A stretch of 64,000 bases of DNA, from positions 64,001-128,000 of the IMG/VR virus record IMGVR_UViG_3300037454_000906. One strand, given 5' to 3'. Position numbers and translations under genes: made by a program. This DNA comes from a virus. Below the pieces are notes generated by a model. That model searched no databases, was not told the origin of the DNA, and was given only the letters and a program-made list of their open reading frames with translations. Numbering within the stretch: position 1 is the stretch's first letter; each line of letters opens with the position of its first letter. Shown piece after piece: positions 7,106-46,346 of the stretch.

Positions 7106-7393
7106 CCGTTAACTGAAACCTACCTAAATCTACCACTAGGACAGACCTACGTGATTTCCTGCCTTGCCCATTGCTGAGTAGGCCGTAACGGCACTTAATC
7201 AACCGCATCTACGCGATATACCTAATATGCATCAAGCAACACGGCTGACTTGCCTAGTCCTACTCCATTACTGAAGAGCCTTAACACGGTCGGCATATCA
7301 AACTAGGCATTGTTAAATATACATTATTTCCATTAGCATATTTAAGTATATTTAGTTAAATGTTGTTAACATTTTCGTTAACTGCTAACAACC
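7106..7393 (-). mobile_element. non-autonomous IS607-like element (left end + omegaRNA-like right end), copy 1
   Basis: ~288 bp, nearly identical to 24028-24313. GG at both junctions, preceded by TGTG. Right end (AGGAAATCACG...TAGGTTTCAGTTAACGG) homologous to the TnpB element end at 20480-20542. Interrupts a small ORF. Confidence 0.8.
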
Positions 7394-7497
7394 CACACAC
7401 CAAGCATGAATACCGCGAAGGCGCCACCGAGCATCGGATGTACCGAGTAGAGGTATCCGGTCACGACGAGCGCTCCGATGAATGCGAGGCACCCCAT
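7378..7497 (-). CDS. small membrane protein, 3' end replaced by the inserted element
   Basis: MGCLAFIGALVVTGYLYSVHPMLGGAFAVFMLGVW|VVSS*; removing the element gives ...VWVGKKG*. Confidence 0.6.
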   Translation of the reverse strand: MGCLAFIGALVVTGYLYSVHPMLGGAFAVFMLGVWVVSS

Positions 7498-18551: not shown

Positions 18552-20542
18552 GGTTATCAACAGCTAACCTAAAATCTACCTAAATTTACTCAATTTTACC
18601 GAAATCGGCAAGTATTTTAGTGCATTTTAGGTTGAAAATCGACATAAAATTTTGTACATTGTTATAAACTTGATATATAACGGTTCGATGAATTAGTCGT
18701 GTTCTTCGTCGAGCTATAGTGGAAACCATTTCGATGGCTCGTTTGGAATTGAACACGACAATAAGTTCCTTACGAGCCATTTCTGTATTGTATGAGCAAG
18801 CATTGTTGGACATTGAAGGATCGGTATGAGTCGCAGTTCTCCGCTGCGTTCTATCCTATTCTATTGTCCGACACCAAGCGTGCCGAAATTACCCATCGTG
18901 CGGGGGAAATCCGTTCCGTAAGGAACGACATATCGGAAGTGTTCTTCTCGGATATGCTCGGCTTCCAGGATATGAGCAAGTTCGAGGCCTTTAACTTTTT
19001 CAATCCGACATTCAATACACGCCTATCTGGCCACTACTTGAAGAAGGCTATCGAGGATGTCTGGAAGGCATACCAATTACGGTTCGATGCGATCCGCAGG
19101 AAGATTGAGTTCGTCAAGGTTGAAGAGCTGGTTCCATCCTTTTACAAGATAAACACCCATGGGCATAGGAAAGGCGACCTTAAATCTATTGAAGTTCATA
19201 CCAAGAAGACAGAACTTACCAAAGTGCTGACTTGGCTTGCTCGATACGGCAAGAATGAAACCGTCTATTGGCTTGAATCCGTTATTCCTACCGTAGTAGA
19301 ATCCAAGCAGAAGTTCTATCGAGCTATACTTGATAAGATACGCAAATTTGGGTTTGACCGCCTCATGCGGTTGGCGCGGTCAAGAAGAACATCTGTATTT
19401 GCCGAATACGAGAAGCGTGGCAAGATTACCTTTGAATCGCTTACATTCTCTGGCCGTAGTCGTATCAAGCGTCCTATCGTGGATGCTCGCAGGAACGAGA
19501 CTGGTAAGTTCGATTACTTCATCGAGATTTCCTGGGATTGGAATGACCAAGGCTACCGTGGTGACAGCAAGAACACGCTATGCATGCCGTTCAAGTATAA
19601 CAAGGCATACCACCGTTCGTTGAACCGCTACTGCAACGGAACCGATACATCCTATACGATGGTAGTCCGAGGAAAGGACATCCATGTAGTTCTCGCAAGG
19701 GACGGCTACCGCTATAAGAATACTGACGAGATTACCGAAGAAAATACCGTCGGAATAGATGTCAATTCCAAGCACAACATGTTCGCATTGAGTACCGGTG
19801 AGTTCATCCCGAACGACGATGCCTTGATTGCCGACCTTGAAACCGAGTTGCTCAAGATAGACCGGAAGCAGAAGAACTACAACGTCAAATTCAAGGAAGA
19901 CGAAGAGCATGAAGCGTTCAAGATATCCAAGAAGGACAAGGCTCGCATCGAAGCTATTACATTGAAGCTGAACGAGTCCAACAAGCGAGCTATCGTACTG
20001 CTTTGCCAAGCATTTGCCGCTAAAGGAATCAAGCACATCGCAATGGAGAACCTCGATGGTTTCCAAGGCAGAAGGCTCCATGCTGATGACTCAAAAGGAT
20101 TTAATCTAGGAAGGTTGCATCTAAGGACTGGACTATCCTCGTTGAAGGACGAGTTCATCCATATTGCACCGCATTACGGACTGTCGGTTTCACTTGTGCA
20201 ACCCGAATACACTTCCAAGATGTGCGGTGAGTGCGGTTGCATCGACGACCGGAACCGCCAGACACAAGAAGAATTTTGCTGTGTTGAATGCCATCATGCG
20301 GAAAACGCGGATATTCATTCAGCCAAGAATATTAAAGTCCGTCTTACCTCGACCGTGTTAAGAGGGAACTTGCTCGAAAGGGCAGGGGATAGCGGATATA
20401 GGTACTTCCAGCCAAAGAGCTTGTTCAGGTGGCAAGTAAGGAAGTGCCTAGAAAAATGCCGTTGCGATGGTCTTCTCAAACGGACCATAGGAAATCACGA
20501 AAACCTTACTGTGAGTAGGTTTGAGTAGATTTCAGTCAACGG
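18552..20542 (+). mobile_element. IS607-like TnpB-only element (no TnpA)
   Basis: GTGGG-GG left junction and AAC-GG right junction. ~10-bp direct repeats (TCTACCTAAA-like) at the left end, inverted at the right end. Removal restores an in-frame minus-strand ORF. Confidence 0.75.
18792..20528 (+). CDS. tnpB: TnpB RNA-guided endonuclease (578 aa)
   Basis: RuvC-I GIDVN, RuvC-II AMENL, zinc finger CGECG...CVEC, RuvC-III NADIHSAKNI; catalytic D-E-D intact. Confidence 0.9.
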   Translation: MSKHCWTLKDRYESQFSAAFYPILLSDTKRAEITHRAGEIRSVRNDISEVFFSDMLGFQDMSKFEAFNFFNPTFNTRLSGHYLKKAIEDVWKAYQLRFDAIRRKIEFVKVEELVPSFYKINTHGHRKGDLKSIEVHTKKTELTKVLTWLARYGKNETVYWLESVIPTVVESKQKFYRAILDKIRKFGFDRLMRLARSRRTSVFAEYEKRGKITFESLTFSGRSRIKRPIVDARRNETGKFDYFIEISWDWNDQGYRGDSKNTLCMPFKYNKAYHRSLNRYCNGTDTSYTMVVRGKDIHVVLARDGYRYKNTDEITEENTVGIDVNSKHNMFALSTGEFIPNDDALIADLETELLKIDRKQKNYNVKFKEDEEHEAFKISKKDKARIEAITLKLNESNKRAIVLLCQAFAAKGIKHIAMENLDGFQGRRLHADDSKGFNLGRLHLRTGLSSLKDEFIHIAPHYGLSVSLVQPEYTSKMCGECGCIDDRNRQTQEEFCCVECHHAENADIHSAKNIKVRLTSTVLRGNLLERAGDSGYRYFQPKSLFRWQVRKCLEKCRCDGLLKRTIGNHENLTVSRFE

Positions 20543-20668: not shown

Positions 20669-21169
20669 TCATATGCACTTGACGATTGTACCGTTGTATG
20701 TTCCCAGTTCCATCATGTCCCTGATGGCGGCTTCCCTGGTGTCGGCAAACGATATAACGTACCGTTCGTCGAGGTCGTAAACATCGTAGCCTTTGTTGGT
20801 TTTCCGGATGGCGAACCTGGCGGACTGGATGGAATAGCACGGCTTTCCGGTTTCGGTGAACAGGTCGGCCTCACGGAAAGGTTCCTGGAGCCAGTCGAGC
20901 AGGGCTTTGGCACCGACCATGGCGTCATAGAATGTCTTGAACCTGGCGAAAGCGAGGAACACGAACTGGCTCCGGTGTAATCCGTCGCCCCTGGACCTGG
21001 GGATGGCGGGGTTGTCATCCCTGAGAGCCAGCGAGAAGTACCCGTTGTGCCTGTCGACCACCTTGATTTTAGTGTGCTTGGGGGACCATAGGCGCCAGTT
21101 CTTGTTGGCGTAAAATGGTCGTTGTGAGTCGTGTTTTGCAATGATGTGCTCAATTACGCCGCTCATCAT
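20669..21169 (-). CDS. hypothetical protein
   Basis: ORF track, operon context. Confidence 0.7.
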   Translation of the reverse strand: MMSGVIEHIIAKHDSQRPFYANKNWRLWSPKHTKIKVVDRHNGYFSLALRDDNPAIPRSRGDGLHRSQFVFLAFARFKTFYDAMVGAKALLDWLQEPFREADLFTETGKPCYSIQSARFAIRKTNKGYDVYDLDERYVISFADTREAAIRDMMELGTYNGTIVKCI

Positions 21170-21969
21170 AGTTTGCCCCCGTTGATATTCTTCAAGGCGT
21201 ATTCCGGCCGGTTGAATTCCGCACGGGAAAGCATCTTGTTGAACCGTGTCAGTTCCCTGGTGATGTAGGACTTCATGTTCTTCATGTTGCTCTTCAGTGG
21301 GCCCCTATACGTGTTGGACATGGATACCTGGAAGTTGTGGACGTACACGACGGTAGACAGCGACTCGGAATGCTTGAAACCGAACGTGCCGTCCTTCTTG
21401 ATGGTCGGTTCACCGGTTACCCAGAGATCCATGTATCCTTCCCCCGTGATGTTGAGCCGCATCCCAACACTCTTGTGGTCATCGGTGAAGATGGTACTGA
21501 TACGGTAGTCGCGTTTCGTATCTTGTTCAGATAAAGTGGCGAAGTCCTTAGAGACACATTCGGTGGCCGCCTTGTAGATGAGCTGCAGGATCCAGATCTG
21601 CCATGCAGGGGGCGTGATTGCGGTGTCGGGAGCGGTGAACACCGGGTTCATGTCAGCCATGAACAGGGTGAAGTGCAGGTTGTGGAATGCGTTAAGGAGG
21701 TTCACATCCCACGGTAAGTTCTTCATCTTAAAAACGGCGCGATCCCGGAGGGGCATGCAGTATTTGTATGCCTCGAACGTGGACATGATGGGGGTCATCG
21801 AACCGTTGGCCATGTAGTTGACCAGGTAAGTCGTTGTGCGGGCAGATGCACTGGCGGGGAGGTCACTGTCAGGTTCGAACATTGTGCCCACGTCATCATC
21901 AGACGGGTGCCACTCACCATCCAGGTCACCCCTGGTCCAGTTCAAACGATTTTCTTCGATAAAGTCCAT
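21166..21969 (-). CDS. hypothetical protein
   Basis: ORF track, RBS. Confidence 0.75.
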   Translation of the reverse strand: MDFIEENRLNWTRGDLDGEWHPSDDDVGTMFEPDSDLPASASARTTTYLVNYMANGSMTPIMSTFEAYKYCMPLRDRAVFKMKNLPWDVNLLNAFHNLHFTLFMADMNPVFTAPDTAITPPAWQIWILQLIYKAATECVSKDFATLSEQDTKRDYRISTIFTDDHKSVGMRLNITGEGYMDLWVTGEPTIKKDGTFGFKHSESLSTVVYVHNFQVSMSNTYRGPLKSNMKNMKSYITRELTRFNKMLSRAEFNRPEYALKNINGGKL

Positions 21970-21970
21970 G

Positions 21971-22270
21971 TTATTCCTCCGTGCACTCGATTGTTTCCGG
22001 GTATGGGTAGTTTTCCATGGCGCCGCTTCCGCTATGATGTCCGGGGCGCGGGTGATGGTAGGAGAAGTTATTGCCTATCTTGCACCTGAGCTTCTTCGCC
22101 GGCACCTGTGTCTCGATGCAGACGGCATCGAGGGTTCTCCCCCTGTGATAGAATGCAGAGAGGATTTTTGACTTTGCGGCCTCGCACTGCTGCAATGTTG
22201 GGAATTTGAGGTCGGCGTTGGCCGAGTAGCCGTTGATGGAAAATACGAGAATGAATATTGCTTTTACCAT
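21971..22270 (-). CDS. small protein with signal-peptide-like N-terminus
   Basis: MVKAIFILVFSING hydrophobic N-terminus; Cys pairs. Confidence 0.6.
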   Translation of the reverse strand: MVKAIFILVFSINGYSANADLKFPTLQQCEAAKSKILSAFYHRGRTLDAVCIETQVPAKKLRCKIGNNFSYHHPRPGHHSGSGAMENYPYPETIECTEE

Positions 22271-22274
22271 TTTG

Positions 22275-23420
22275 TTATCCTTCGTACCAGGGTTTGAGAA
22301 CTTCCATTTTCATTTCGCTAAAACGGGGTGAAGCGTTGCGGAATCCCAGATCGTATGTCTTGTCCACGCGCTTTTGGATCATGTCCTTGGCGATGCGTTC
22401 GGCTTCTTCCGGGGTAGTTGCACTGACCTTGACATGCACGTTGGCCACGACCGGGACTGTGAAGCGGTAGTTCACAACAGGATCCGGACGTTCGAACTTG
22501 GAGATGTCTACAAGGTAATCGTCAATCTGGCGCACTTTCGCACGTTCAGGCTTCTTGCTCCATGATTCCATGCTCTTGTACTCTTCCTCAAATTCCATGC
22601 TCTTGTACTCTTCCTCAATCCAGTCCTTTACCACTCCGCGCCCGTATTCGGCCAGTTCGTCATAGGACATCCCGAATAGCTTCTTCGGCACTTCGAGTGT
22701 ACAGGGGCCGTGATGAAAGGGCCATTCGACATCTACCTTGATATAGTCGGAATCTTCTGGGGTACCGAACAGGTAAAACCCGGTAAACACGATGTCATCC
22801 TCGTGATTCCACCTTCCACCGTGGAGAGTATTGAGACGAAGGCGGGACACGACGACGATTGGCCAAATAACCTTATTGGCAAGAGCTTGGTATTCATGTC
22901 GCAGATTGTGGACCTTTTTGTCCTTGAAATCATCTAAATCCTTACCCTCGTACGGCTTGATTGCATCGTTGAACTTGGCGAGGATATCTTTGAGCTTCGC
23001 ATACAATGTGGCGTAGTCGGGAAATTCCTTGCGGTTTTCCTCGATTTGCGTGCGCAACTTTTCCACTTCGGCGCGATAGGAAATCTGTACTCCCTCGATG
23101 GCCTTCAGGATTGGCTTACGGAGATACGGGCTGTACACGCCCTTGGCGCAGCCGCGCTTGTTAGAGCTCGGGGAATACTCCCTGGTTGTCAGCATGGCAT
23201 ACGGGATACGGCAGTCTGGATTATATTCCGGGCCATCGAACCTGACATACCACTTGTCCATGGATAGCCAAGCAATCTGGATTCCATACCAGGTGACGGT
23301 ACCCGTATCCGCATCGCATAGACCAAATTCGTTTACCGAAATTCCGGGGATGTCCCCGATGGTTTCCCTGGCGGTCTTTATCGCCTGTTTTACAATAGGA
23401 TTGTTGCTCTCTGTACTCAT
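22275..23420 (-). CDS. hypothetical protein (contains EEEYKSME tandem duplication)
   Basis: Start MSTESNN downstream of promoter at 23439-23467. Confidence 0.75.
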   Translation of the reverse strand: MSTESNNPIVKQAIKTARETIGDIPGISVNEFGLCDADTGTVTWYGIQIAWLSMDKWYVRFDGPEYNPDCRIPYAMLTTREYSPSSNKRGCAKGVYSPYLRKPILKAIEGVQISYRAEVEKLRTQIEENRKEFPDYATLYAKLKDILAKFNDAIKPYEGKDLDDFKDKKVHNLRHEYQALANKVIWPIVVVSRLRLNTLHGGRWNHEDDIVFTGFYLFGTPEDSDYIKVDVEWPFHHGPCTLEVPKKLFGMSYDELAEYGRGVVKDWIEEEYKSMEFEEEYKSMESWSKKPERAKVRQIDDYLVDISKFERPDPVVNYRFTVPVVANVHVKVSATTPEEAERIAKDMIQKRVDKTYDLGFRNASPRFSEMKMEVLKPWYEG

Positions 23421-23438
23421 ATTAGTTTCCTTGTACAA

Positions 23439-23467
23439 AATGTAGCAAAAAGGGCCCGGTTTGACAA
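23439..23467 (-). promoter_or_regulatory. sigma70-type promoter overlapping the CRISPR-array terminator
   Basis: TTGTCA-N17-TACATT with TGC extension; hairpin GGGTCCGG-TTGTCAAA-CCGGGCCC-TTTTT at 23447-23475. Confidence 0.7.
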
Positions 23468-23514
23468 CCGGACCCATGTGTCAAGATTTGTTGACATGCT
23501 ACGACTAACATTCT

Positions 23515-23991
23515 GTCGTCCCCGGGCTTCAAACTACGCCCGGTTCGAGCAAGATTCTGGAACGCAACGGCTGCTGTCCTCGGGTTTCAAACTACGCCCG
23601 GTTCGAGCTTCAGACCTAAAAATGCCCATTTTAGGGTGCTGTCTCCGGGCTTCAAACTACGCCCGGTTCGAGCAGTCGGAAAAATACATGTACAAACTGC
23701 CTGGCTGTCTCCAAGTTTCAAACTACACCCGGTTCGAGCGCCTCTTAAAATACCCCAGCTGTCCCCGGGTTTCAAACTACACCCGGTTCGAGCTTAACTG
23801 ACAGAACATCTTCTGTCCAGCCTGCTGTCCCTGGGTTTCAAACTACACCCGGTTCGAGCTAACAACGATGTAATAGGTGTCACTTGGGGGCTGTCCCTGG
23901 GTTTCAGACTACACCCGGTTCGAGCGAACTTTTACGGCCTTCTCGCTTTGATGATGCTGTCCCTGGGTTTCAGACTACACCCGGTTCGAGC
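23515..23991 (-). CRISPR. CRISPR array, 8 repeats (36 nt), 7 spacers
   Basis: Repeats start at 23515, 23573, 23638, 23704, 23758, 23824, 23890, 23956. Transcribed consensus GCTCGAACCGGGTGTAGTTTGAAACCCAGGGACAGC. Spacers 22, 29, 30, 18, 30, 30, 30 nt. The repeat at 23515 is most degenerate, so the leader is on the cas side. Confidence 0.95.
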
Positions 23992-24027
23992 ACATTTTGC
24001 ATAAGTCCCCGTTGGCCAAATAGTTAA

Positions 24028-24313
24028 CCGTTAACTGAAACCTACCTAAATCTACCAAGAGATAGACTTATGTGATTTCCTACCTTGCCCATCACTGGGT
24101 AGGCCGTAACGGCACTTAATCAACCGTATCTACGCGATATACCTAATATGCATCAAGCAACACGGCTGACTTGCCTAGTCCTACTCCATTACTGAAGAGC
24201 CTTAACACGGTCGGCATATCAAACTAGGCATTATTAAATATACATTATTTCCATTGCATATTTAAGTATGTTTAGTTAAATTTTATTAACATTTTCATTA
24301 ACAGCTAACAACC
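24028..24313 (-). mobile_element. non-autonomous IS607-like omegaRNA element, copy 2, in the CRISPR leader
   Basis: Near-identical to 7106-7393 with different flanks; TGTG-GG...AAC-GG junctions. Confidence 0.8.
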
Positions 24314-24345
24314 CACATAAAATAATAAAAAACTGGCATTCAAGA

Positions 24346-27030
24346 TTACCTGAACATGAATTTCTGGTTCTTCACACAGCATGCGCTATTCTCGTCGGCA
24401 TACTGGTACATGCCGTACCAGGGAGACTCCGGTACGAATGTGATGAACGTGCGTCCACTGCGGTAGTTCCACCCGTTCATGCGGCATCCTTCGATTCCTG
24501 CAGTCCGTACCTTGGCCTTTGTGACCGTCTTGGGCAAGCCCACCATCGTGTAGTGGTCGGTGAATGACGTGCCCCTCTTGTCAACTGTTCCGAAGAGGAT
24601 CTTTCGCTTGGCGCACATCTTCTCCATAGCCTTGCCCTCTATGGATATGTGGAGAGACTTGATCAACCTGCCGTCGGCCCTGGCAATCGCTCTTAGCTCG
24701 ATGAATTCCCTGGTGGCGGAGCATTTCATCTTCACCGCACCGTTCCTTACGTAAACCTTGTCACATACCCAGAGGTCACTGCAGCGGTCGGCAGCGTTCT
24801 TTATGGTCTTTGCGGTATGGCCCTTGGGGCACGGGAACGTCACGTCAGCGGAATACCCATCTGGGGAAAACGTGATGTCCGGGATGAAGTCCGCGCCTTC
24901 AAACCATCCCTTGGTGATAACTCTAAAGAGACTCTTCACCTTGCGGTCCTTCTCTCCGTTGAAATTGAGGTCATTTTCCATCTTGATGACCTTCAGGCGC
25001 TTCTTGCCGAATTCCGTATCAAGGAAACAGATAGAACGGATGCGTGCCATGTTGCTGTCGATGCGGTTGTCTATGGCATGGCGCTCGTTCAGGAGTGCCG
25101 CGGCTTCCGCCGTTTCCGAGAACTTGCCGGTATGTTTGAGGGACCATTCGGACTGTTTGGCGTAGTATCTCTCGTAGCCGACAATCTGTTCCTTGATCAG
25201 CCTGCGCTGGATGAAGGTGTAATCCACGATTTCGCGCTTCCTGGTGCCGCTATGGTACTTGCTGCGGAGATAAGCGAAGAAGCCGACGAGAGGATCCACG
25301 GGGGTCTTCCACCCGTTCTCCCTGATACCAACGAGTCCATAACGGATGCCAAGTGTCAGCATGAATGCATAGCGGTGAACACTGTCCTTCTTCGGTCGTT
25401 CGTGGACGGCGCGGTACATGACTTCGAGTTCGCCAATGACCGCGTCGATTTCCCTGCGGCACAAGGTGGTGCGGGCAAGTTCCTTCTCGATTATCCCGTT
25501 ATCATGGAACTTCTCGTAATATTCGGCCAGCTCGCCTACCCAGTCGACAACGTCGCCCATGAGGTTTACTGGAATCGACGTGTTGTAAAAGAAAACCGCG
25601 GTATTGAGGTCGATGCCAACCACCGATTCCTTGTCCATCTTGGTCTCGTCGCTAATCTTGATTTCGGTGGATTCCACGCTTCCCGCAACCGATCCCGTGA
25701 ATTCGGCATGTCTAGGGCACTTGCGGAACCCGGTGGGGGAAATAATGTCTTCGGGCATGAAGGCGGACTTGGGCAGGGACACCGTGACCGTGGGCGTTTC
25801 CTTGAGTGCCTTCTCGATGCCGGCGAAATAGGGGAACTTGCCGACCCTGGACTGGGAACGGGTCTTCATGAGGAGCGTAGCGGAAGCACATTCGTCGCCG
25901 GTCACCGGAAGCTGCGGGATAACCAGTTCGGAATTGTAGTATCCGTCCTTGTGCACGTCGAGGTTCACGATGCAGTGGTCCATGGGGACTGCTGTGTTGT
26001 CGGAGAGCTTGACACACCCCATGTTTTCGATGAACACCCGCATCGCCGCACGGTAGGCCTTGTTGAACTTTTCGATGTCCGTTGGCTTTTCAATCTTTAC
26101 CTTCTTGCCACATACCTTGGCGTAGGGGAACGCATCCTCCCCATTCTTGTTCTTCTTGTCCCATATGGCCAGGGACGGCATTCGCTTGTTTAGGTACGAA
26201 TGGGTGTCGGGCCCGACCTGCTCCAGTTGGGCGGCGAGCATCTGAACATTTTCCGGCATGTGTTTCCAGTTGTCGAATTTCCGCTCAGGATCGTCGCCGT
26301 TCCACCCGAGGGACAGCTTGATGGAATTGCGGAACAGCTTGTCGTCGTAACCTTCCCCCACGTTACGGAGCATCTTCGCGCCGACAAAGGCGCGTAGCTT
26401 CCCGTTGACCATCGTGTTCACGATTGCGCCGGATACGAATGCGGAAGCGCAGAACTGCATTTCGTCGGGGTCGATGCCGGCGAGGGCCGCATAGGACTTC
26501 CTCAGCACGGATTCGACATCGCTGGTAGTGACGCCGAAAAGTTTCCGGTAATAACCGCTGGGGCTGAACAGGGAATACGAGAGGTATGCCCCCTGGCGCA
26601 GGTGGGTGACCGGGATCTCGATATCCCTGCCACGGATCTTGGCCACATGGCATTCCTTTCCCCTGGTCTTTCCGATAATGCGCCCATCGGACATTACGAC
26701 ATCGAAGTTGTTCTTGTATTCGTTGAGTGCCTGGTTACGGAGGTCATACAGGTCCCAGATGTAGAACTTTTCGTACCGCCCGTCCTTGAGCCTGATGTCG
26801 ATCGTATCAAAAAAGTGCTTGCCGATTGTTTCCACCGCAAACTTTGCAGCGGATACAGCCGCCTTCGATAGGTTGCTTATCCTCGTGGCATCGGTTTCAT
26901 TCATTGCGGCAATTTCGCACTTGTAGCCCCGAGTCTTCTTGTTTGCTTCGGGCGCGAAGGTGGAATAGGTGATTCCCCTATTCACACGGACCGTCGGTTC
27001 TATTTTCGGTTTACTGCGTTTCATTTTCAC
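24346..27030 (-). CDS. cas12: type V CRISPR effector, Cas-lambda/Cas12L-like (894 aa)
   Basis: RuvC-I VVGIDLN, RuvC-II KMENDL, RuvC-III YADENSA; adjacent co-oriented array; YYAKQSEW, IKSLH, GTSFTDH and KAKVR motifs resemble Cas-lambda as recalled; no cas1/cas2 in window. Confidence 0.8.
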   Translation of the reverse strand: MKMKRSKPKIEPTVRVNRGITYSTFAPEANKKTRGYKCEIAAMNETDATRISNLSKAAVSAAKFAVETIGKHFFDTIDIRLKDGRYEKFYIWDLYDLRNQALNEYKNNFDVVMSDGRIIGKTRGKECHVAKIRGRDIEIPVTHLRQGAYLSYSLFSPSGYYRKLFGVTTSDVESVLRKSYAALAGIDPDEMQFCASAFVSGAIVNTMVNGKLRAFVGAKMLRNVGEGYDDKLFRNSIKLSLGWNGDDPERKFDNWKHMPENVQMLAAQLEQVGPDTHSYLNKRMPSLAIWDKKNKNGEDAFPYAKVCGKKVKIEKPTDIEKFNKAYRAAMRVFIENMGCVKLSDNTAVPMDHCIVNLDVHKDGYYNSELVIPQLPVTGDECASATLLMKTRSQSRVGKFPYFAGIEKALKETPTVTVSLPKSAFMPEDIISPTGFRKCPRHAEFTGSVAGSVESTEIKISDETKMDKESVVGIDLNTAVFFYNTSIPVNLMGDVVDWVGELAEYYEKFHDNGIIEKELARTTLCRREIDAVIGELEVMYRAVHERPKKDSVHRYAFMLTLGIRYGLVGIRENGWKTPVDPLVGFFAYLRSKYHSGTRKREIVDYTFIQRRLIKEQIVGYERYYAKQSEWSLKHTGKFSETAEAAALLNERHAIDNRIDSNMARIRSICFLDTEFGKKRLKVIKMENDLNFNGEKDRKVKSLFRVITKGWFEGADFIPDITFSPDGYSADVTFPCPKGHTAKTIKNAADRCSDLWVCDKVYVRNGAVKMKCSATREFIELRAIARADGRLIKSLHISIEGKAMEKMCAKRKILFGTVDKRGTSFTDHYTMVGLPKTVTKAKVRTAGIEGCRMNGWNYRSGRTFITFVPESPWYGMYQYADENSACCVKNQKFMFR

Positions 27031-27036
27031 TCTCGT

Positions 27037-27285
27037 TTATTGAAATTTCCTTCCGAACATTGAGATACCATGGGCTTCCCAGTCGCACAGTTGCAATGGG
27101 ATCGGGTTGTCTTTTACAGCGTCATCCCCATACTGCTTACGAAGAGCTTCGCGAGCATCATCCGGAAGGGTGGAAATATCCCGAAAATAGAAATAGACGG
27201 TCACCGTGTTAGAGTCCTCCCAGTATTTCTTCGGGAAGGGCCTCTTGAACACAGCGAACCATATACGTTTAGATGACTCAGCCAT
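27037..27285 (-). CDS. hypothetical protein
   Basis: Start MAESSK; directly upstream of cas12. Confidence 0.65.
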   Translation of the reverse strand: MAESSKRIWFAVFKRPFPKKYWEDSNTVTVYFYFRDISTLPDDAREALRKQYGDDAVKDNPIPLQLCDWEAHGISMFGRKFQ

Positions 27286-27286
27286 C

Positions 27287-27595
27287 TTATTGCCCGATGA
27301 CGAGCTCCTTATATTTTTCGAGTTGATATTTGACGGAATCATATACTTCTTTGATTGTCATGTTCTCGCCATACACCTTCCTGATGGCAGAAATTTGATC
27401 CATGCGTTCTACGCAGTGCACGTAGACGCCCAGATCATTCATCTTTTCATACCGGTTAGCTGGCGAGTCCTTTACCGATGACATCTGGTTTAGGAGTTTA
27501 CGCAGGCCCTTTTTCGATGACATCTGTTTTAGGCGTTTACACAGTGTTCCGGCAGTCATCGTAAGATTTGTTGTTGCCTGTTTTTCTTTAGCCAT
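27287..27595 (-). CDS. hypothetical basic protein
   Basis: ORF track, RBS. Confidence 0.65.
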   Translation of the reverse strand: MAKEKQATTNLTMTAGTLCKRLKQMSSKKGLRKLLNQMSSVKDSPANRYEKMNDLGVYVHCVERMDQISAIRKVYGENMTIKEVYDSVKYQLEKYKELVIGQ

Positions 27596-27602
27596 ATTTT
27601 CC

Positions 27603-27881
27603 TCATTTTAAGTAGCGCCATGCGACAACGTTTTCCGTCGGGAAACTGTTGCCCGATTCATCATCGATGTACCACACAGGTCCATAATCTGTAACCGTAT
27701 CCCCATCGGAATCAGTGTAGGTATACGGCTCTTCCCCAACCCATACCTCACCCGGTTTGATATTGCCGTCAGACATACGGCATTCAATTCTGTGAGCGTC
27801 CCAGTCACCCGTGAACACGTCGGTAACATCATACACTAGGTTACCGGGGTTCACCGTGCGCCACCCGCTCCATTCTTCCAT
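27603..27881 (-). CDS. hypothetical acidic protein
   Basis: ORF track. Confidence 0.65.
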   Translation of the reverse strand: MEEWSGWRTVNPGNLVYDVTDVFTGDWDAHRIECRMSDGNIKPGEVWVGEEPYTYTDSDGDTVTDYGPVWYIDDESGNSFPTENVVAWRYLK

Positions 27882-28432
27882 CAGAACGTAACTCCCCGGT
27901 GCTGGTGAAGGTATTCCATGGTATCATCCGGGACAACGGGGCCGCTCTTAGGTTCGTGCGCCAGTTTGCCGTCGGGCGTCACGTCAATAAACTCGTCTCG
28001 GACGAGTACCTTCACGCCGCTCAGCTGCTTTCCAGCAACCTGCTTCAACCCGGCGCGGTATGCTTCCCCGTTCCTGGCAATACCGGCCAGTTCATCATTA
28101 ATATAGAAGCTGACCGGATCCATCACGCTGTTTTCGATATTGAGAGGGAACACCCTGGCTTTACGATACATGTTGTCTATGATGGTGGCCACGGGTTCAG
28201 TCTCCAAGAATATCATTCCGTTGGCGGCGAGTCGCTCCAAGGATTCCAGAATTCCATGATCCGCAAACATGCAATCACGGATTTTGTGCACCTGCTCATC
28301 AGGGGTCAGGCCACTACAGTTGTTCAAGCACTCCCTGATGGCTCCGGTGGCATACTTCACCCGGTCGACTGCCCACTGGTATTCAATCAGTGTGTGAGAA
28401 ATCATTTCGAGGTCATTGTCATCGAGTTTCAT
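27881..28432 (-). CDS. hypothetical protein
   Basis: ORF track; promoter-like TTGCCA-N16-TATATT at ~28465-28492. Confidence 0.7.
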   Translation of the reverse strand: MKLDDNDLEMISHTLIEYQWAVDRVKYATGAIRECLNNCSGLTPDEQVHKIRDCMFADHGILESLERLAANGMIFLETEPVATIIDNMYRKARVFPLNIENSVMDPVSFYINDELAGIARNGEAYRAGLKQVAGKQLSGVKVLVRDEFIDVTPDGKLAHEPKSGPVVPDDTMEYLHQHRGVTF

Positions 28433-28501
28433 AATTACGCTATTTCCTCCATGAATTGTAAATAATATAACAATTGCCAGCCCGTTGGCAACAAGGGGCT
28501 G

Positions 28502-28906
28502 TTAATCGTTCCGGTGTTCCTTCGATTTGTATTTCTTGATTTTCAGTTCCATCTCGTTATGATAATCGTCCATCACGTGTCGGTAGAATGCCGAATCATG
28601 CAACCACTTGCCGTATTGCTTAAGGCATTCCGCATCGGTACTGTTCGCGGCGAGGCATGCCGGGCGCTCATTCATTATTCGCGCGTAGCTCCTGTCTATC
28701 ATGGTGGCATGCGATGGGGTGTAGGCAAAACATAGGAGACCTGCGCCAAAACTGAGTATGAAAAGGAACGCAAATAATTCCTCCCGAAATATGATGGTAA
28801 TCACCAGAAATACCGTGGAGAGTATCCCGAAGATGATCATGCTCCATACGAACGTATCGCAGTACATGTTTCCGAATGCATCAACTAGGAACTTGTAGAC
28901 GAACAT
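28502..28906 (-). CDS. membrane protein (2 TM)
   Basis: Hydrophobic stretches; GGAGG RBS before MFVYK. Confidence 0.7.
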   Translation of the reverse strand: MFVYKFLVDAFGNMYCDTFVWSMIIFGILSTVFLVITIIFREELFAFLFILSFGAGLLCFAYTPSHATMIDRSYARIMNERPACLAANSTDAECLKQYGKWLHDSAFYRHVMDDYHNEMELKIKKYKSKEHRND

Positions 28907-28946
28907 GGAAAATTTCCTCCAATCTTTTTCACCAAATATAGCAACA

Positions 28947-29354
28947 CTATACCAGGTTGCCAACTCTGGTCATTGGTGTGCCAGCGTGCGCCACCTCATA
29001 TTCAGTGCAATCACCCAGCCACGAGGCAACTATGTGACGGTGGCAGAAATCACCGGGCCGTTCGAAGCACAGCAGTACGATCTTGGTACAATCTGTGCCG
29101 GTGAGGTACGTCAGGTCCCGCTTGACCTTCTCACGATCCAGGCGCCCGAGAATTTCCTCCGTGAAGCGGCGAACGTAATGTCCAGTGTCATCCTTGAAGT
29201 TACCGTACCGGTATCCGTTGAGTATGGATGCCGAGGGGGCCAGTAATGGGTACCGCAGGCCGTCAAACCATACTGGGGGATGCAGTGATATGGCAACGGG
29301 GACCAGCCCGCAATCGGCATAGTGCTTTGCTTTCGCGTAGTATCCCGTGTACAT
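28947..29354 (-). CDS. DUF488-family protein
   Basis: YTGYY...LAPS...IVLLCFERPGDFCHRHIVASWL. Confidence 0.85.
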   Translation of the reverse strand: MYTGYYAKAKHYADCGLVPVAISLHPPVWFDGLRYPLLAPSASILNGYRYGNFKDDTGHYVRRFTEEILGRLDREKVKRDLTYLTGTDCTKIVLLCFERPGDFCHRHIVASWLGDCTEYEVAHAGTPMTRVGNLV

Positions 29355-35359: not shown

Positions 35360-36739
35360 ATGGGATACCGAGGAAACGACCATCTTCGTCCGGCCACAGA
35401 GGAAATCTCGCTACTGCCTTGGCAGCAAGAGGAAATCATGAAGTGTGCCGATGACCCGGAATACTTCATCCGGAACTACTGCTACATCCACACGAAGGAT
35501 GCCGGGATGCAGCTATTCAACCTGCGACCAAGGCAGGCACAGGAACTGAAAAACATGCAGGAACACCGCTTCATAAAGGGAGACTGGTACAGGCAATCCG
35601 GCTATTCGACAACCGTACTGGCTTACATGCTATGGGATACCATATTCTCGGAAACCCCGCACTTCAACGTCTACATGGGCGAAAAGGAAGACAGGGCCAA
35701 GGAAGAATTCTACAAGGTGAAGCAGATGTACCTTAACTTGCCATACTGGATGCAACCGGGTGTGAAACATTGGACGAATGAAGCCATATGTATGGCTGAC
35801 GGCAGGCGTTTCATTGCAACCGTACCGTCCCCGGACACCGTTCGAGGATTTTCGCCGTACATACTGTTTGTCGACGACTTTGGGTTATACACGGACAATC
35901 GCGCATTGAACCTGGTACAATCCGTGTTCCCGACCATCATGTCCGGCAACAGCAGGCACCTGATTACTGGCAGCAGTCACAAGTTCGGAAACCAGACACC
36001 ATTCAACCTCACGTTCTGGAAAAACTCAGAGAAGCACTTCTTCGTATCCGAGAACACCTGGGACACCGATACCCAACATGATGAAGAATGGGCCAGGGCA
36101 GAACGCCAAAAAATCGGCGACTTCAAGTTCGAACGCTTCTACTGCGGCAAGATTGTCCAGGATGTCATGGACCAGCCGGAAAAGGAAGAACCGCCCAAAA
36201 TCTTCTGGTCCAACAAGATCGACCAAATACCGGACCTGATTCGCCGTACCCGCTGGAATGCAAAGTTCCATTCCCGCAACGATGACTGGGAGACCATAAA
36301 CGACCACCTGTCCGTCATCAACATGGCACATGACAGTGTAGAGTACATGGGCCACAGTTATCCCGCCCTACGGTTCTTCGTAAGGAATGACGAGGGAATG
36401 ATACCCACCGCAATGTTCCTGGAAGGGTACGTGACGGTGGACCTGAATATCTACGACTTTAAGTTGGGTAACATCGTGGCGACTACACGATACAGGTGTC
36501 TGTGCCTCAGGTCCCTTATCCAGCCTGACCCGCTCGTGTATGAAGGTGATAACCCGAAATACATGAACACAGTGATTACCCTGATTGTCCTGGATACCTG
36601 CCCAATCATCGAAGGCGCCGGCGGTATGCGTGAACTACCCGACGAAGCGGATGAGATATCGCTGAACCGTATACTACAGGAACGAAGCGGACGAAGGGCG
36701 GCAATATCGGAATTCCTGGAAGATGCTTGCATGCCATAA
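35360..36739 (+). CDS. terminase large subunit (T4 gp17-like) ATPase paralogue, degenerate, with unrelated C-terminus
   Basis: KCADDPEYFIRNY..I...FNLRPRQ; Walker A RQSGYSTT (K to Y); Walker B ILFVDDF; RGFSP; no RNase H nuclease motifs seen. Confidence 0.75.
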   Translation: MGYRGNDHLRPATEEISLLPWQQEEIMKCADDPEYFIRNYCYIHTKDAGMQLFNLRPRQAQELKNMQEHRFIKGDWYRQSGYSTTVLAYMLWDTIFSETPHFNVYMGEKEDRAKEEFYKVKQMYLNLPYWMQPGVKHWTNEAICMADGRRFIATVPSPDTVRGFSPYILFVDDFGLYTDNRALNLVQSVFPTIMSGNSRHLITGSSHKFGNQTPFNLTFWKNSEKHFFVSENTWDTDTQHDEEWARAERQKIGDFKFERFYCGKIVQDVMDQPEKEEPPKIFWSNKIDQIPDLIRRTRWNAKFHSRNDDWETINDHLSVINMAHDSVEYMGHSYPALRFFVRNDEGMIPTAMFLEGYVTVDLNIYDFKLGNIVATTRYRCLCLRSLIQPDPLVYEGDNPKYMNTVITLIVLDTCPIIEGAGGMRELPDEADEISLNRILQERSGRRAAISEFLEDACMP

Positions 36740-44889: not shown

Positions 44890-46346
44890 GTGAACTACCC
44901 ACAGCCTAAAGGCTGTGAGCTTCGAGTTTTCGCTTCGACGGAGCCACTTGTGCTAACTCAGTATAACTGGGAGACATAGAGGCAGCTACCTCAGCGGAGG
45001 CGTGTTCCACGCACTCAGCACGTTTAGTCGTGCCAAACAAGAGTACATTACAGGCGGAATGCCAATCCCTCGGCTTGGTATAACCGCAATCACAGTGATA
45101 TGTGCGCTCATCCAAGCTAATGGTATTTACTGCACCGCAAGCTGGACACATCTTGGTCGTCGGTAGCCACTTTGACAACACGAATGCGCGGTCTGCCTTG
45201 ACCAGCATCTTGATACGCTGTTTAAGGTCTCCCATGCAAGAGTGTTGCACTTGCTTACCGAACCAGGTCTGGTGCCAGTTCTTGATCTGCTCGTCCTGTA
45301 TGTATATGACATCGTAGCTGGACACAAGGTCGTGGTAGATTTTGTTGCAGATGTCCTTGCGGACATTCGCAACATGTTCATGCTCACGGGCAAGCTGCTT
45401 CCTACAATTCCATCGCCGCTTGGAGTCCTTCTGCTTCTTGTGCCTATTGAGCATCTTGCTCAGGTACTTCAGGTACTCGGTTTCTTGCACTTTGCAATCG
45501 TAGGTCTTGTTGTCCGATGTCGTTATCGTATTCTTGATGCCGAAGTCCAGGCCGACACTCTTGCGGGTGCGGTTTCTCGGTTCCTTCGGCAACATAATGG
45601 TGAGTTTTACATAGTAACCTGATGCCTTGCGAATGAGCTTGGCATCGGCTATCTCGTATTCCTCAAACTCTATCTGATGCAAGCCGTTCACTTTCAATTT
45701 CCTGAAACCAGGAATGGTGATATGGCTTGCATCCAAAATCTTCGTGAAACCCGTAATGATGGGAATGCAGTTCACTTCGCTTTTGAACTTCAACGCGCCA
45801 ACCTTGATACCTTTCTTCTTGGCCTTGGTGAGGTTGACAATGTCGGTCTTCTTCTGGGCTACAGTAGCCCTGTGGAGAACGGACGGCAGTGTAATGGATG
45901 AAGTGACCGGGTTCTTGTCCTTGTCGTAGTGGACTACATCCCTATGCTCGGTGTACTTGTAATCGAACATGCTGTTGTCGGGATTATCCTTGGACAACGA
46001 CAACATGTCGTTGATTACCCACTTAGCTTCCTTGAAACAGTTGGATAATTTCTCAAACACCGATTTGGGATTGTGCCGTATGGACACCTTAAGCTCGAAG
46101 ACACGGCATGTCTGCGTCTTACGACGGGCATGCGTTTCCGCCATGCTCGCCTTAATCCTCGCCTTCGTATCTTCGCTTCTTATCAGTTCCATAACAAGAT
46201 TCTTGACTATACTTATAGTTTAGAAGTTTTACTCAATAAATATATCTATTTTAGTGCCCATAAAATGTTATTTATTTCTTACATTTGCTATCGGCGGGTC
46301 TTACCCACGCCCTAAAGGGCGTGAGCTTGCGACCGCCCATTCCTCC
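44890..46346 (-). mobile_element. IS200/IS605-family TnpB-only element
   Basis: Subterminal hairpins CACAGCCTAAAGGCTGTG (44900-44917) and CACGCCCTAAAGGGCGTG (46306-46323); right end ...GGGTAGTTCAC; TTTAA candidate TAM at the left; exact ends inferred. Confidence 0.75.
44906..46192 (-). CDS. tnpB: TnpB (428 aa)
   Basis: GLDFGIK, YIQDEQ, TTKMCPACG...CDCG, RDWHSACN. Confidence 0.9.
   Translation of the reverse strand: MELIRSEDTKARIKASMAETHARRKTQTCRVFELKVSIRHNPKSVFEKLSNCFKEAKWVINDMLSLSKDNPDNSMFDYKYTEHRDVVHYDKDKNPVTSSITLPSVLHRATVAQKKTDIVNLTKAKKKGIKVGALKFKSEVNCIPIITGFTKILDASHITIPGFRKLKVNGLHQIEFEEYEIADAKLIRKASGYYVKLTIMLPKEPRNRTRKSVGLDFGIKNTITTSDNKTYDCKVQETEYLKYLSKMLNRHKKQKDSKRRWNCRKQLAREHEHVANVRKDICNKIYHDLVSSYDVIYIQDEQIKNWHQTWFGKQVQHSCMGDLKQRIKMLVKADRAFVLSKWLPTTKMCPACGAVNTISLDERTYHCDCGYTKPRDWHSACNVLLFGTTKRAECVEHASAEVAASMSPSYTELAQVAPSKRKLEAHSL

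Follow-up and report, generated by a model that had tools for sequence, protein, structure and literature searches.

The 64,000-nt stretch of viral DNA analyzed here (the window, in what follows) covers bases 64001–128000 of IMG/VR record IMGVR_UViG_3300037454_000906, a 253,117-bp phage record rated 99% complete by CheckV. Its minus strand carries a gene for a large predicted RuvC nuclease, P0001, followed by a CRISPR array. With a probability of about 0.78, we regard this locus as a class 2 type V CRISPR module that is carried by a phage and in working order, its effector being a distant, larger relative of Cas-lambda, the lineage represented by the structures of Cas-lambda1 (PDB 8DC2) and Cas-lambda2 (PDB 9IZM–9IZS) and labeled Cas12l in databases and Cas12n in some reviews. 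We further read the family around P0001 as a small, deeply divergent sister group of Cas-lambda, an assignment that with respect to fold draws on predicted structures. No paper naming this family was found in a literature whose coverage was incomplete. The elements on which the argument turns are the following.

24346–27030, minus strand: effector gene (Cas-lambda-like type V nuclease), open for 894 codons from the GTG at 27030.
25609–25611, minus strand: codon of RuvC-I Asp474 (GIDLN, motif from residue 472); the GID column is kept in all full-length family members.
24976–24978, minus strand: codon of RuvC-II Glu685 (MENDL, motif from residue 684); the column is invariant in the family alignment.
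24394–24396, minus strand: codon of RuvC-III Asp879 (ADENS, motif from residue 878); a family-conserved column.
24400–24570, minus strand: TNB-domain region (approximately residues 821–877), with the zinc-ribbon CxxC...CxxC cysteines replaced (TSFTDHYT ... ITFVPESPWYG).
23515–23991, minus strand: CRISPR array of eight 36-nt repeats (GCTCGAACCGGGTGTAGTTTGAAACCCAGGGACAGC) and seven spacers, co-oriented with the effector gene.

The RuvC D-E-D triad that an earlier note on this DNA had described as intact does indeed fall in conserved columns at D474, E685 and D879, its putative catalytic positions, and all of the effector motifs quoted there are present, including YYAKQSEW at residue 622, IKSLH at 790 and TSFTD at 821. 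The protein contains a single split RuvC domain and no HNH domain, and it ends 15 residues past D879, leaving it without a C-terminal tail domain. The GTG at 27030 is probably not the true start; the likelier start is an ATG at 27024, two codons in, which is preceded by a GAGAG ribosome-binding site, is where the relatives P0002 and P0003 (892 aa) begin, and gives a protein of 892 aa. When compared with an 89%-identical orthologue, the gene has a ratio of nonsynonymous to synonymous substitution rates (dN/dS) of 0.16 and is under purifying selection. The locus as a whole is probably functional and maintained by selection.

The similarity to Cas-lambda is seen in the predicted structure. A template-free AlphaFold2 model of the window effector (mean predicted local distance difference test score, pLDDT, 75.5) displays a RuvC-type Cas12 fold with the Cas-lambda layout, namely a WED/REC1/REC2 lobe, a RuvC domain with an inserted REC3 and a TNB domain. 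In the Foldseek comparison that the earlier note had recommended, Cas-lambda2 and Cas-lambda1 were the top matches to this model (E 6e-13 to 1e-10; the next match was at 1.7e-5), and for two distant family members Cas-lambda1/2 were the best structural matches by a two-fold margin. All of the top structural matches were Cas12, TnpB or Fanzor proteins. A search of BFVD produced a lone standout, a viral protein of 756 aa (E 1.6e-15), with every other match at E >= 1.7e-4, and a search by ESM features ranked a cluster annotated 'CasLambda family protein' second. A fold search of the ESM Atlas with the model returned TnpB-type clusters only, with template-modeling (TM) scores < 0.5.

At the level of sequence the family is isolated. 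No family was assigned to P0001 by Pfam, NCBIfam or PADLOC scans, and phmmer against all PDB chains gave no match, Cas-lambda chains being absent up to a cutoff of E <= 10. When 1.84 billion cluster representatives were searched exhaustively with phmmer, only 12 proteins came up: one twin at 97% identity, P0004 at 37%, and ten proteins at 20–29% (797–929 aa, two of them fragments). Word-indexed searching contributed the 89% orthologue P0003 and, when the family profile was used, a single fragment. The family amounts to only roughly a dozen clusters at 50% identity, with lengths of 797–929 aa. The alignment and profile used here comprise 14 family sequences. In the PDB, this profile matched only the RuvC-III/TNB region of Cas12f, TnpB, Cas12m, Cas12p and Cas12c, the best E value being 2.4e-8 (Cas12f). 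PF07282, the Cas12f1-like TNB domain, matches 11 of the 14 members; P0001–P0003 go unmatched because the CxxC...CxxC zinc-ribbon cysteines, present in most of the family, have been replaced in the P0001–P0004 clade.

These results place P0001 both close to and apart from Cas-lambda. Published Cas-lambda homologues are 735–798 aa long and match 8DC2 at E <= 1e-10 (PMC11576732), whereas no HMMER search with the present family reached 8DC2 at E <= 10 and the window effector (892 aa, family 797–929 aa) is some 100–150 aa longer. Judged by the spacing of the catalytic residues in Cas-lambda2 (D324, E526, D680), the stretch ahead of RuvC-I is longer by about 150 residues and that from RuvC-II to RuvC-III by about 40. 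Most family members also differ from Cas-lambda in keeping a zinc ribbon that matches PF07282. The likeness to Cas-lambda is one of predicted fold, CRISPR RNA (crRNA) design, phage origin and absence of adaptation genes. The earlier note's label of Cas-lambda-like is therefore upheld by fold and guide-RNA design and departs from the sequence definition, and its proposal of a new, longer subfamily seems fair because the protein resembles Cas-lambda in fold and crRNA design, falls outside its sequence definition and is longer. High identity to a characterized Cas12L, which would have taken away the novelty, was not seen in the HMMER searches of the PDB. For the putative Cas-lambda motif given in that note for comparison, YYKQQSEY, a back-translated search of IMG/VR matched only frames of 12–23 codons. 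Its description of the effector as GC-rich (guanine plus cytosine) is correct only in relative terms, the region being about 51% GC.

In terms of the guide RNA, the co-oriented eight-repeat array proposed from the window sequence is borne out, with spacers of 30, 30, 30, 18, 30, 29 and 22 nt and repeats that degrade toward the gene-distal end. The arrangement is general, since arrays with 36-nt repeats lie downstream of the gene in 9/9 loci for which downstream DNA is available (the window, L001, L002/L003, L005, L006, L009, L010, L012 and L013), beginning approximately 14–160 nt past the effector stop in the relatives. Spacers are close to 30 nt in eight of the nine, and the array of L009 is eroded. 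Despite very different sequences, the repeats share one design in which bases 1–4 pair with 33–36 and bases 7–14 with 23–30; an internal loop that is mostly G-A / G-A sets the stems apart, and the apical loop is rich in U (41% T). Across 72 distinct repeats from the nine arrays, standard pairs occupy 80.9% of cells for this structure vs 29–47% when the 3′ partner is slid, and both-side changes occur in 11/12 pairs. The covariation score of 0.557 compares with 0.11–0.22 for the slid versions and was reached by 0/500 shuffles. Minimum free energy folds of single sequences agree with the covariation-based structure.

The crRNA reported for Cas-lambda2 has this design: it, too, derives from a 36-nt repeat, its terminal stem closes at position -1, and it combines an adenine junction with a U-rich stem-loop, a pseudoknot being absent (PMC12141684). 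The family repeat differs in being GC-richer and in having a terminal stem that begins at the first repeat base. A candidate trans-activating CRISPR RNA (tracrRNA) was sought in the 8 kb from 21000 to 29000, where no anti-repeat longer than 12 nt was found with G-U pairs allowed. The arrays of L002 (L002:12749-13897) and L006 (L006:5889-6837) are further distinguished by repeats that drift from the gene-proximal to the distal end of a single array while compensatory changes preserve the hairpin; these two arrays look like old, vertically inherited and structurally constrained ones.

Hints on guide length and target flank come from a comparison of all family spacers with all loci, which gave three non-trivial matches. 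Spacer L006_S5 and the terminal L005 spacer are identical over their first 17 nt and share nothing beyond (L005:6202-6218, L006:6189-6205). The 5′ ends of L006_S6 and L001_S6, read on opposite strands, overlap by 17–18 nt, and the partner supplies a TTG flank (L001:13116-13132, L006:6254-6271). Lastly, L012_S11 (L012:6485-6511) matches 15–16 nt at the 3′ end of the L002-type repeat (for example, L002:13166-13180), and TTG directly precedes, on the 5′ side, each copy of that repeat that is matched from position 1. In each of the three cases it is the repeat-proximal end of the spacer that anchors the match. Such 5′ anchoring would fit a crRNA of the form 5′-repeat-spacer-3′ whose guide measures about 17 nt and whose protospacer-adjacent motif (PAM) is of the TTR type, as in Cas-lambda; from these few cases and the Cas-lambda precedent, we infer that the same guide length and PAM may apply here. 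For Cas-lambda2 itself, a 17-bp heteroduplex, a TTR PAM and independence from tracrRNA have been described (PMC12141684), along with a ruler-type guide of 16–18 nt.

Searches for outside targets of these shared segments gave little. The 17-mer common to L001_S6 and L006_S6 had one IMG/VR match, in a coding region, whose flanks disagree, and the merged 22-mer of the two spacers had no metagenome match. The 17-mer common to the L005 and L006 spacers was found at four other loci (three distinct sequences), which is about the chance level; one of these is TTG-flanked and lies inside a 755-aa open reading frame (ORF). A conserved promoter was considered as the target of this 17-mer and was rejected, given the near-chance level of the matches and the position of the TTG-flanked one inside an ORF.

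Building from these observations, a course of action can be proposed by analogy with Cas-lambda that would extend to crRNA-only operation, RuvC processing, guide length, PAM, DNA cleavage and the targets of this effector. Gene and array would be transcribed from the minus strand, originally as one unit that a TnpB-derived insertion now interrupts in this phage. Each 36-nt repeat would fold into the end-closed terminal stem, G-A-rich internal loop and inner hairpin with U-rich loop described above, and the effector would bind this scaffold without a tracrRNA, while its RuvC site would cut the spacer back until a guide of about 17 nt is left. The complex would then cut double-stranded DNA beside a 5′ T-rich motif, probably TTR. 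The module would probably serve against rival phages or other mobile DNA sharing its host cell.

Several observations weigh against this picture of a working, Cas-lambda-type module. Neither phmmer nor hmmsearch with the 14-sequence profile detected sequence similarity to Cas-lambda among all PDB chains at E <= 10, and both structures are predictions from shallow alignments of 14–15 sequences (pLDDT 75.5 and 83.6). The seven window spacers yielded no protospacer: none has a second copy in its own 253-kb phage genome, 50,697 phage records searched with the array returned nothing beyond a 23-nt match at chance level (E=6), and the first 21–22 nt of S1, S2 and S5 have no exact match in IMG/VR, nor does S1 in JGI metagenomes. 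The PAM and guide-length hints consist of the three cross-array matches, all of them in relatives, and the shared 17 nt could mark a conserved target core rather than the length of the guide. With respect to the transcribed strand, the counts of G-U and A-C combinations in the repeat helix favor neither orientation (52 against 60). The array is also worn, with spacers of 18 and 22 nt, a stem-breaking variant in repeat 5 and a mobile-element insertion ahead of repeat 1. As regards expression, parts of the effector gene are represented at 95–99% identity, and part of the array exactly in one run (X24), among contigs of rumen RNA libraries, but this evidence consists of contigs only, DNA carry-over is possible and uncovered bins are uninformative, so that these contigs amount to a weak hint of cas-array expression.

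The short spacers, the drifting repeats and the broken stem of repeat 5, together with a 286-bp insertion that parts cas from the array, the absence of an adaptation module and the lack of identified targets, raise the alternative that the locus is decaying or silenced in this phage and that its guides are no longer made or used. We consider this unlikely. The gene is intact, with all D-E-D residues kept and a dN/dS of 0.16, and the insertion is co-oriented with both gene and array, so that read-through into the array would be possible. In addition, a guide of about 17 nt would keep the 18- and 22-nt spacers usable, and the exact-match array contigs of run X24 (records 17 and 18) point, weakly, in the same direction. 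A different concern is that the effector could act as a DNA-binding silencer that does not cut, in the manner of Cas12m or Cas12c, given that the four zinc-ribbon cysteines of its TNB domain are replaced throughout the P0001–P0004 clade and PF07282 fails to match P0001–P0003. All three RuvC carboxylates are nonetheless conserved, and the Cas-lambda2 structure paper describes an active nuclease whose TNB domain is a beta-sheet with helices and never mentions zinc, which makes a purely silencing role very unlikely in our view.

With many new Cas12 names appearing every year, it must also be asked whether the effector is a member of some already named type V subtype and simply escapes sequence matching, in which case it would not be new. 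The chief candidate is Cas-delta, an effector of about 900 aa with repeats of about 36 bp that is guided by crRNA only and is not accompanied by Cas1/2/4 (PMC12721324). Compared by description only, the two overlap in size, repeat length, lack of Cas1/2/4 and, if our reading of the window locus is correct, crRNA-only guidance. Cas-delta, however, possesses an activity-required C-terminal tail domain after RuvC-III, is described as bridging Cas12n, is kin to Cas12n/TnpB, recognizes an RYR PAM in the case of Cas-delta-1, and was recovered from sludge, marine and aquifer samples rather than phages (PMC12721324). The window effector stops 15 residues past the RuvC-III Asp, with no such tail, and the flanks seen in its relatives' cross-array matches are TTG. 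Cas12r is set apart by 29-bp repeats and an ARG PAM, against 36-nt repeats here and TTG flanks in relatives. Moreover, no other solved Cas12 comes near Cas-lambda as a structural match to the family, and membership in an already-named subtype is thus quite unlikely. Least credible of all is that P0001 is a transposon-type homing nuclease like TnpB or IscB and that its repeats are not a CRISPR array. It is true that the only sequence-level PDB matches of the family profile are RuvC-III/TNB regions of the Cas12f/TnpB type (E 2e-8 to Cas12f), a likeness to these proteins, and that two tnpB genes and omegaRNA-derived mini-elements share the window. TnpB, though, is a protein of about 400 aa with an omegaRNA over its 3′ end, transposon ends and no array. 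The effector is twice that size, all nine loci have regular arrays of 36+30 nt whose unique spacers vary from strain to strain, neither tnpA nor transposon ends were found, and the cassette occupies a fixed locus in related phages.

A Cas-lambda-type module, then, is the reading we carry forward, and it also has parallels with Cas-phi (Cas12j), which resembles it in residing in huge phages, in using a crRNA only, in lacking adaptation genes, in processing pre-crRNA through RuvC and in its simple hairpin, the crRNA-only action and processing being suppositions for the present system. A landfill phage survey limited its effector candidates to <= 800 aa.

The phage context is consistent with this reading. 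The absence of adaptation genes remarked on for the window holds more widely, as Cas1 (PF01867) has no match anywhere in the 253,117-bp record, and a PHROGs scan of the window identified a terminase-large-subunit-like gene at 35360–36739 as well as a RadC-like gene. The four long contigs of the family measure 222–436 kb, and the relatives are found on viral or viral-size contigs. The window stretch or close variants of it occur in gut metagenomes of cattle, sheep and goats sampled in many studies. Between the window phage and L001, a 370-kb contig, the flanks are 88–98% identical and the effectors 89% identical at the amino acid level, yet the two arrays have no spacer in common; in a strain variant represented by a DNA contig of run X3, about 208 bp of the array (23549–23758) are replaced by one different 28-nt spacer. 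Because L001 and this variant differ in spacer content, arrays turn over without a phage Cas1.

A more drastic form of exchange is seen between L002, a 436-kb contig, and L012. Their nucleotide sequences are 82–90% identical as far as the start codon of the effector, and this identity resumes directly behind the array, whereas the effectors in between are only 23% identical and the repeats are different (L002:9744-13928 vs L012:2725-6894). Near-identical flanks around such unlike cassettes indicate that an effector-plus-array cassette has been exchanged at a fixed locus. The L012 cassette furthermore contains the anti-repeat spacer described above, which is aimed at the L002-type repeat of the other cassette. 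The earlier note had assigned the system to inter-phage competition, a role to which the swap and the anti-repeat spacer in these relatives lend indirect support and the window phage's own spacers none; the two together are the best evidence here for phage-against-phage use. More tentatively, and with considerable doubt, one may ask whether Cas-lambda-like modules serve as exchangeable weapons between closely related huge phages, with orthogonal cassettes replacing one another at a fixed locus and spacers directed against a rival's CRISPR repeat.

Further features of the locus concern its transcription and the insertion between gene and array.

24026–24315, minus strand: TnpB/omegaRNA-derived mini-element of 286 bp, between the cas stop and repeat 1 and co-oriented with both.
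23992–24025, minus strand: what is left, on the array side, of the roughly 66 nt that originally lay between gene and array, by alignment with L001; the other part is 24316–24345.
28464–28491, minus strand: candidate operon promoter TTGCCA-16-TG-TATATT, a consensus match only, upstream of the co-oriented block that ends with cas.
23452–23475, minus strand: intrinsic-terminator-like hairpin with T-run (10-bp stem, seven G-C pairs, TTTTTGC tail), a consensus match only.

The distance from effector stop to repeat 1 is 354 nt in the window, compared with 14–70 nt in most relatives. The mini-element in this interval, the CRISPR leader, is 92–95% identical to a copy at 7140–7397, and its 3′ end resembles the 3′ end of a parent-like 578-aa tnpB gene (18792–20528). 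The three stretches related in this way are 24026–24315, 7106–7397 and 18552–20542. An empty insertion site is present in L001 and in the DNA contig of run X3, from another gut metagenome (joint 24025->24310), and since the element is missing from both, the insertion is taken to be recent and polymorphic. Contigs from RNA libraries pile up on the mini-element; these derive from its other copies. The promoter-like site at 28464–28491 is a candidate for driving the gene block that ends with cas, and the hairpin at 23452–23475, located just past the last repeat, likely ends the cas-array transcription unit, both assignments resting on their sequences.

Other elements of the window were noted in passing. 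A second TnpB, of ordinary size (428 aa, PF01385 and PF07282), is encoded on the minus strand at 44906–46192; both it and the gene at 18792–20528 match PF07282/PF01385, which P0001 does not. Between 7001 and 18094, a GC-rich hairpin element measuring about 60–95 nt stands ahead of minus-strand genes in at least 15 copies, spaced approximately 400–1800 bp apart. The 52 nt upstream of the effector start (about 27030–27081) recur at 94% identity directly after the L001 array (L001:13660-13711), a duplicate that flanks the cassette and may be either a scar of recombination or a shared region for translation initiation.

Mining with hidden Markov models or BLAST does not join this family to Cas-lambda, and the fact that sequence mining misses it implies that the Cas-lambda-type lineage is broader and older than its roughly two dozen known members of 735–798 aa suggest. 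The TnpB-like zinc ribbon, kept in most members and lost in the window clade, provides a stepwise series in which to study how phage type V effectors arose from TnpB. In terms of application, where the earlier note saw a genome-editing candidate, the effector is a candidate nuclease that by inference needs no tracrRNA and has a short, simple scaffold; given that its size exceeds that of Cas-lambda, any advantage would come from a different PAM or different fidelity. For phage biology, the relatives, with their swapped cassettes and a spacer against a rival repeat, are a case in nature on which phage-against-phage CRISPR conflict could be tested. If the exchangeable-weapon idea is true, a rival's repeat would be a target present in many copies, from which mutational escape would cost the rival its own system, CRISPR arrays would themselves be targets, and replacement of the whole cassette would be a route of escape.

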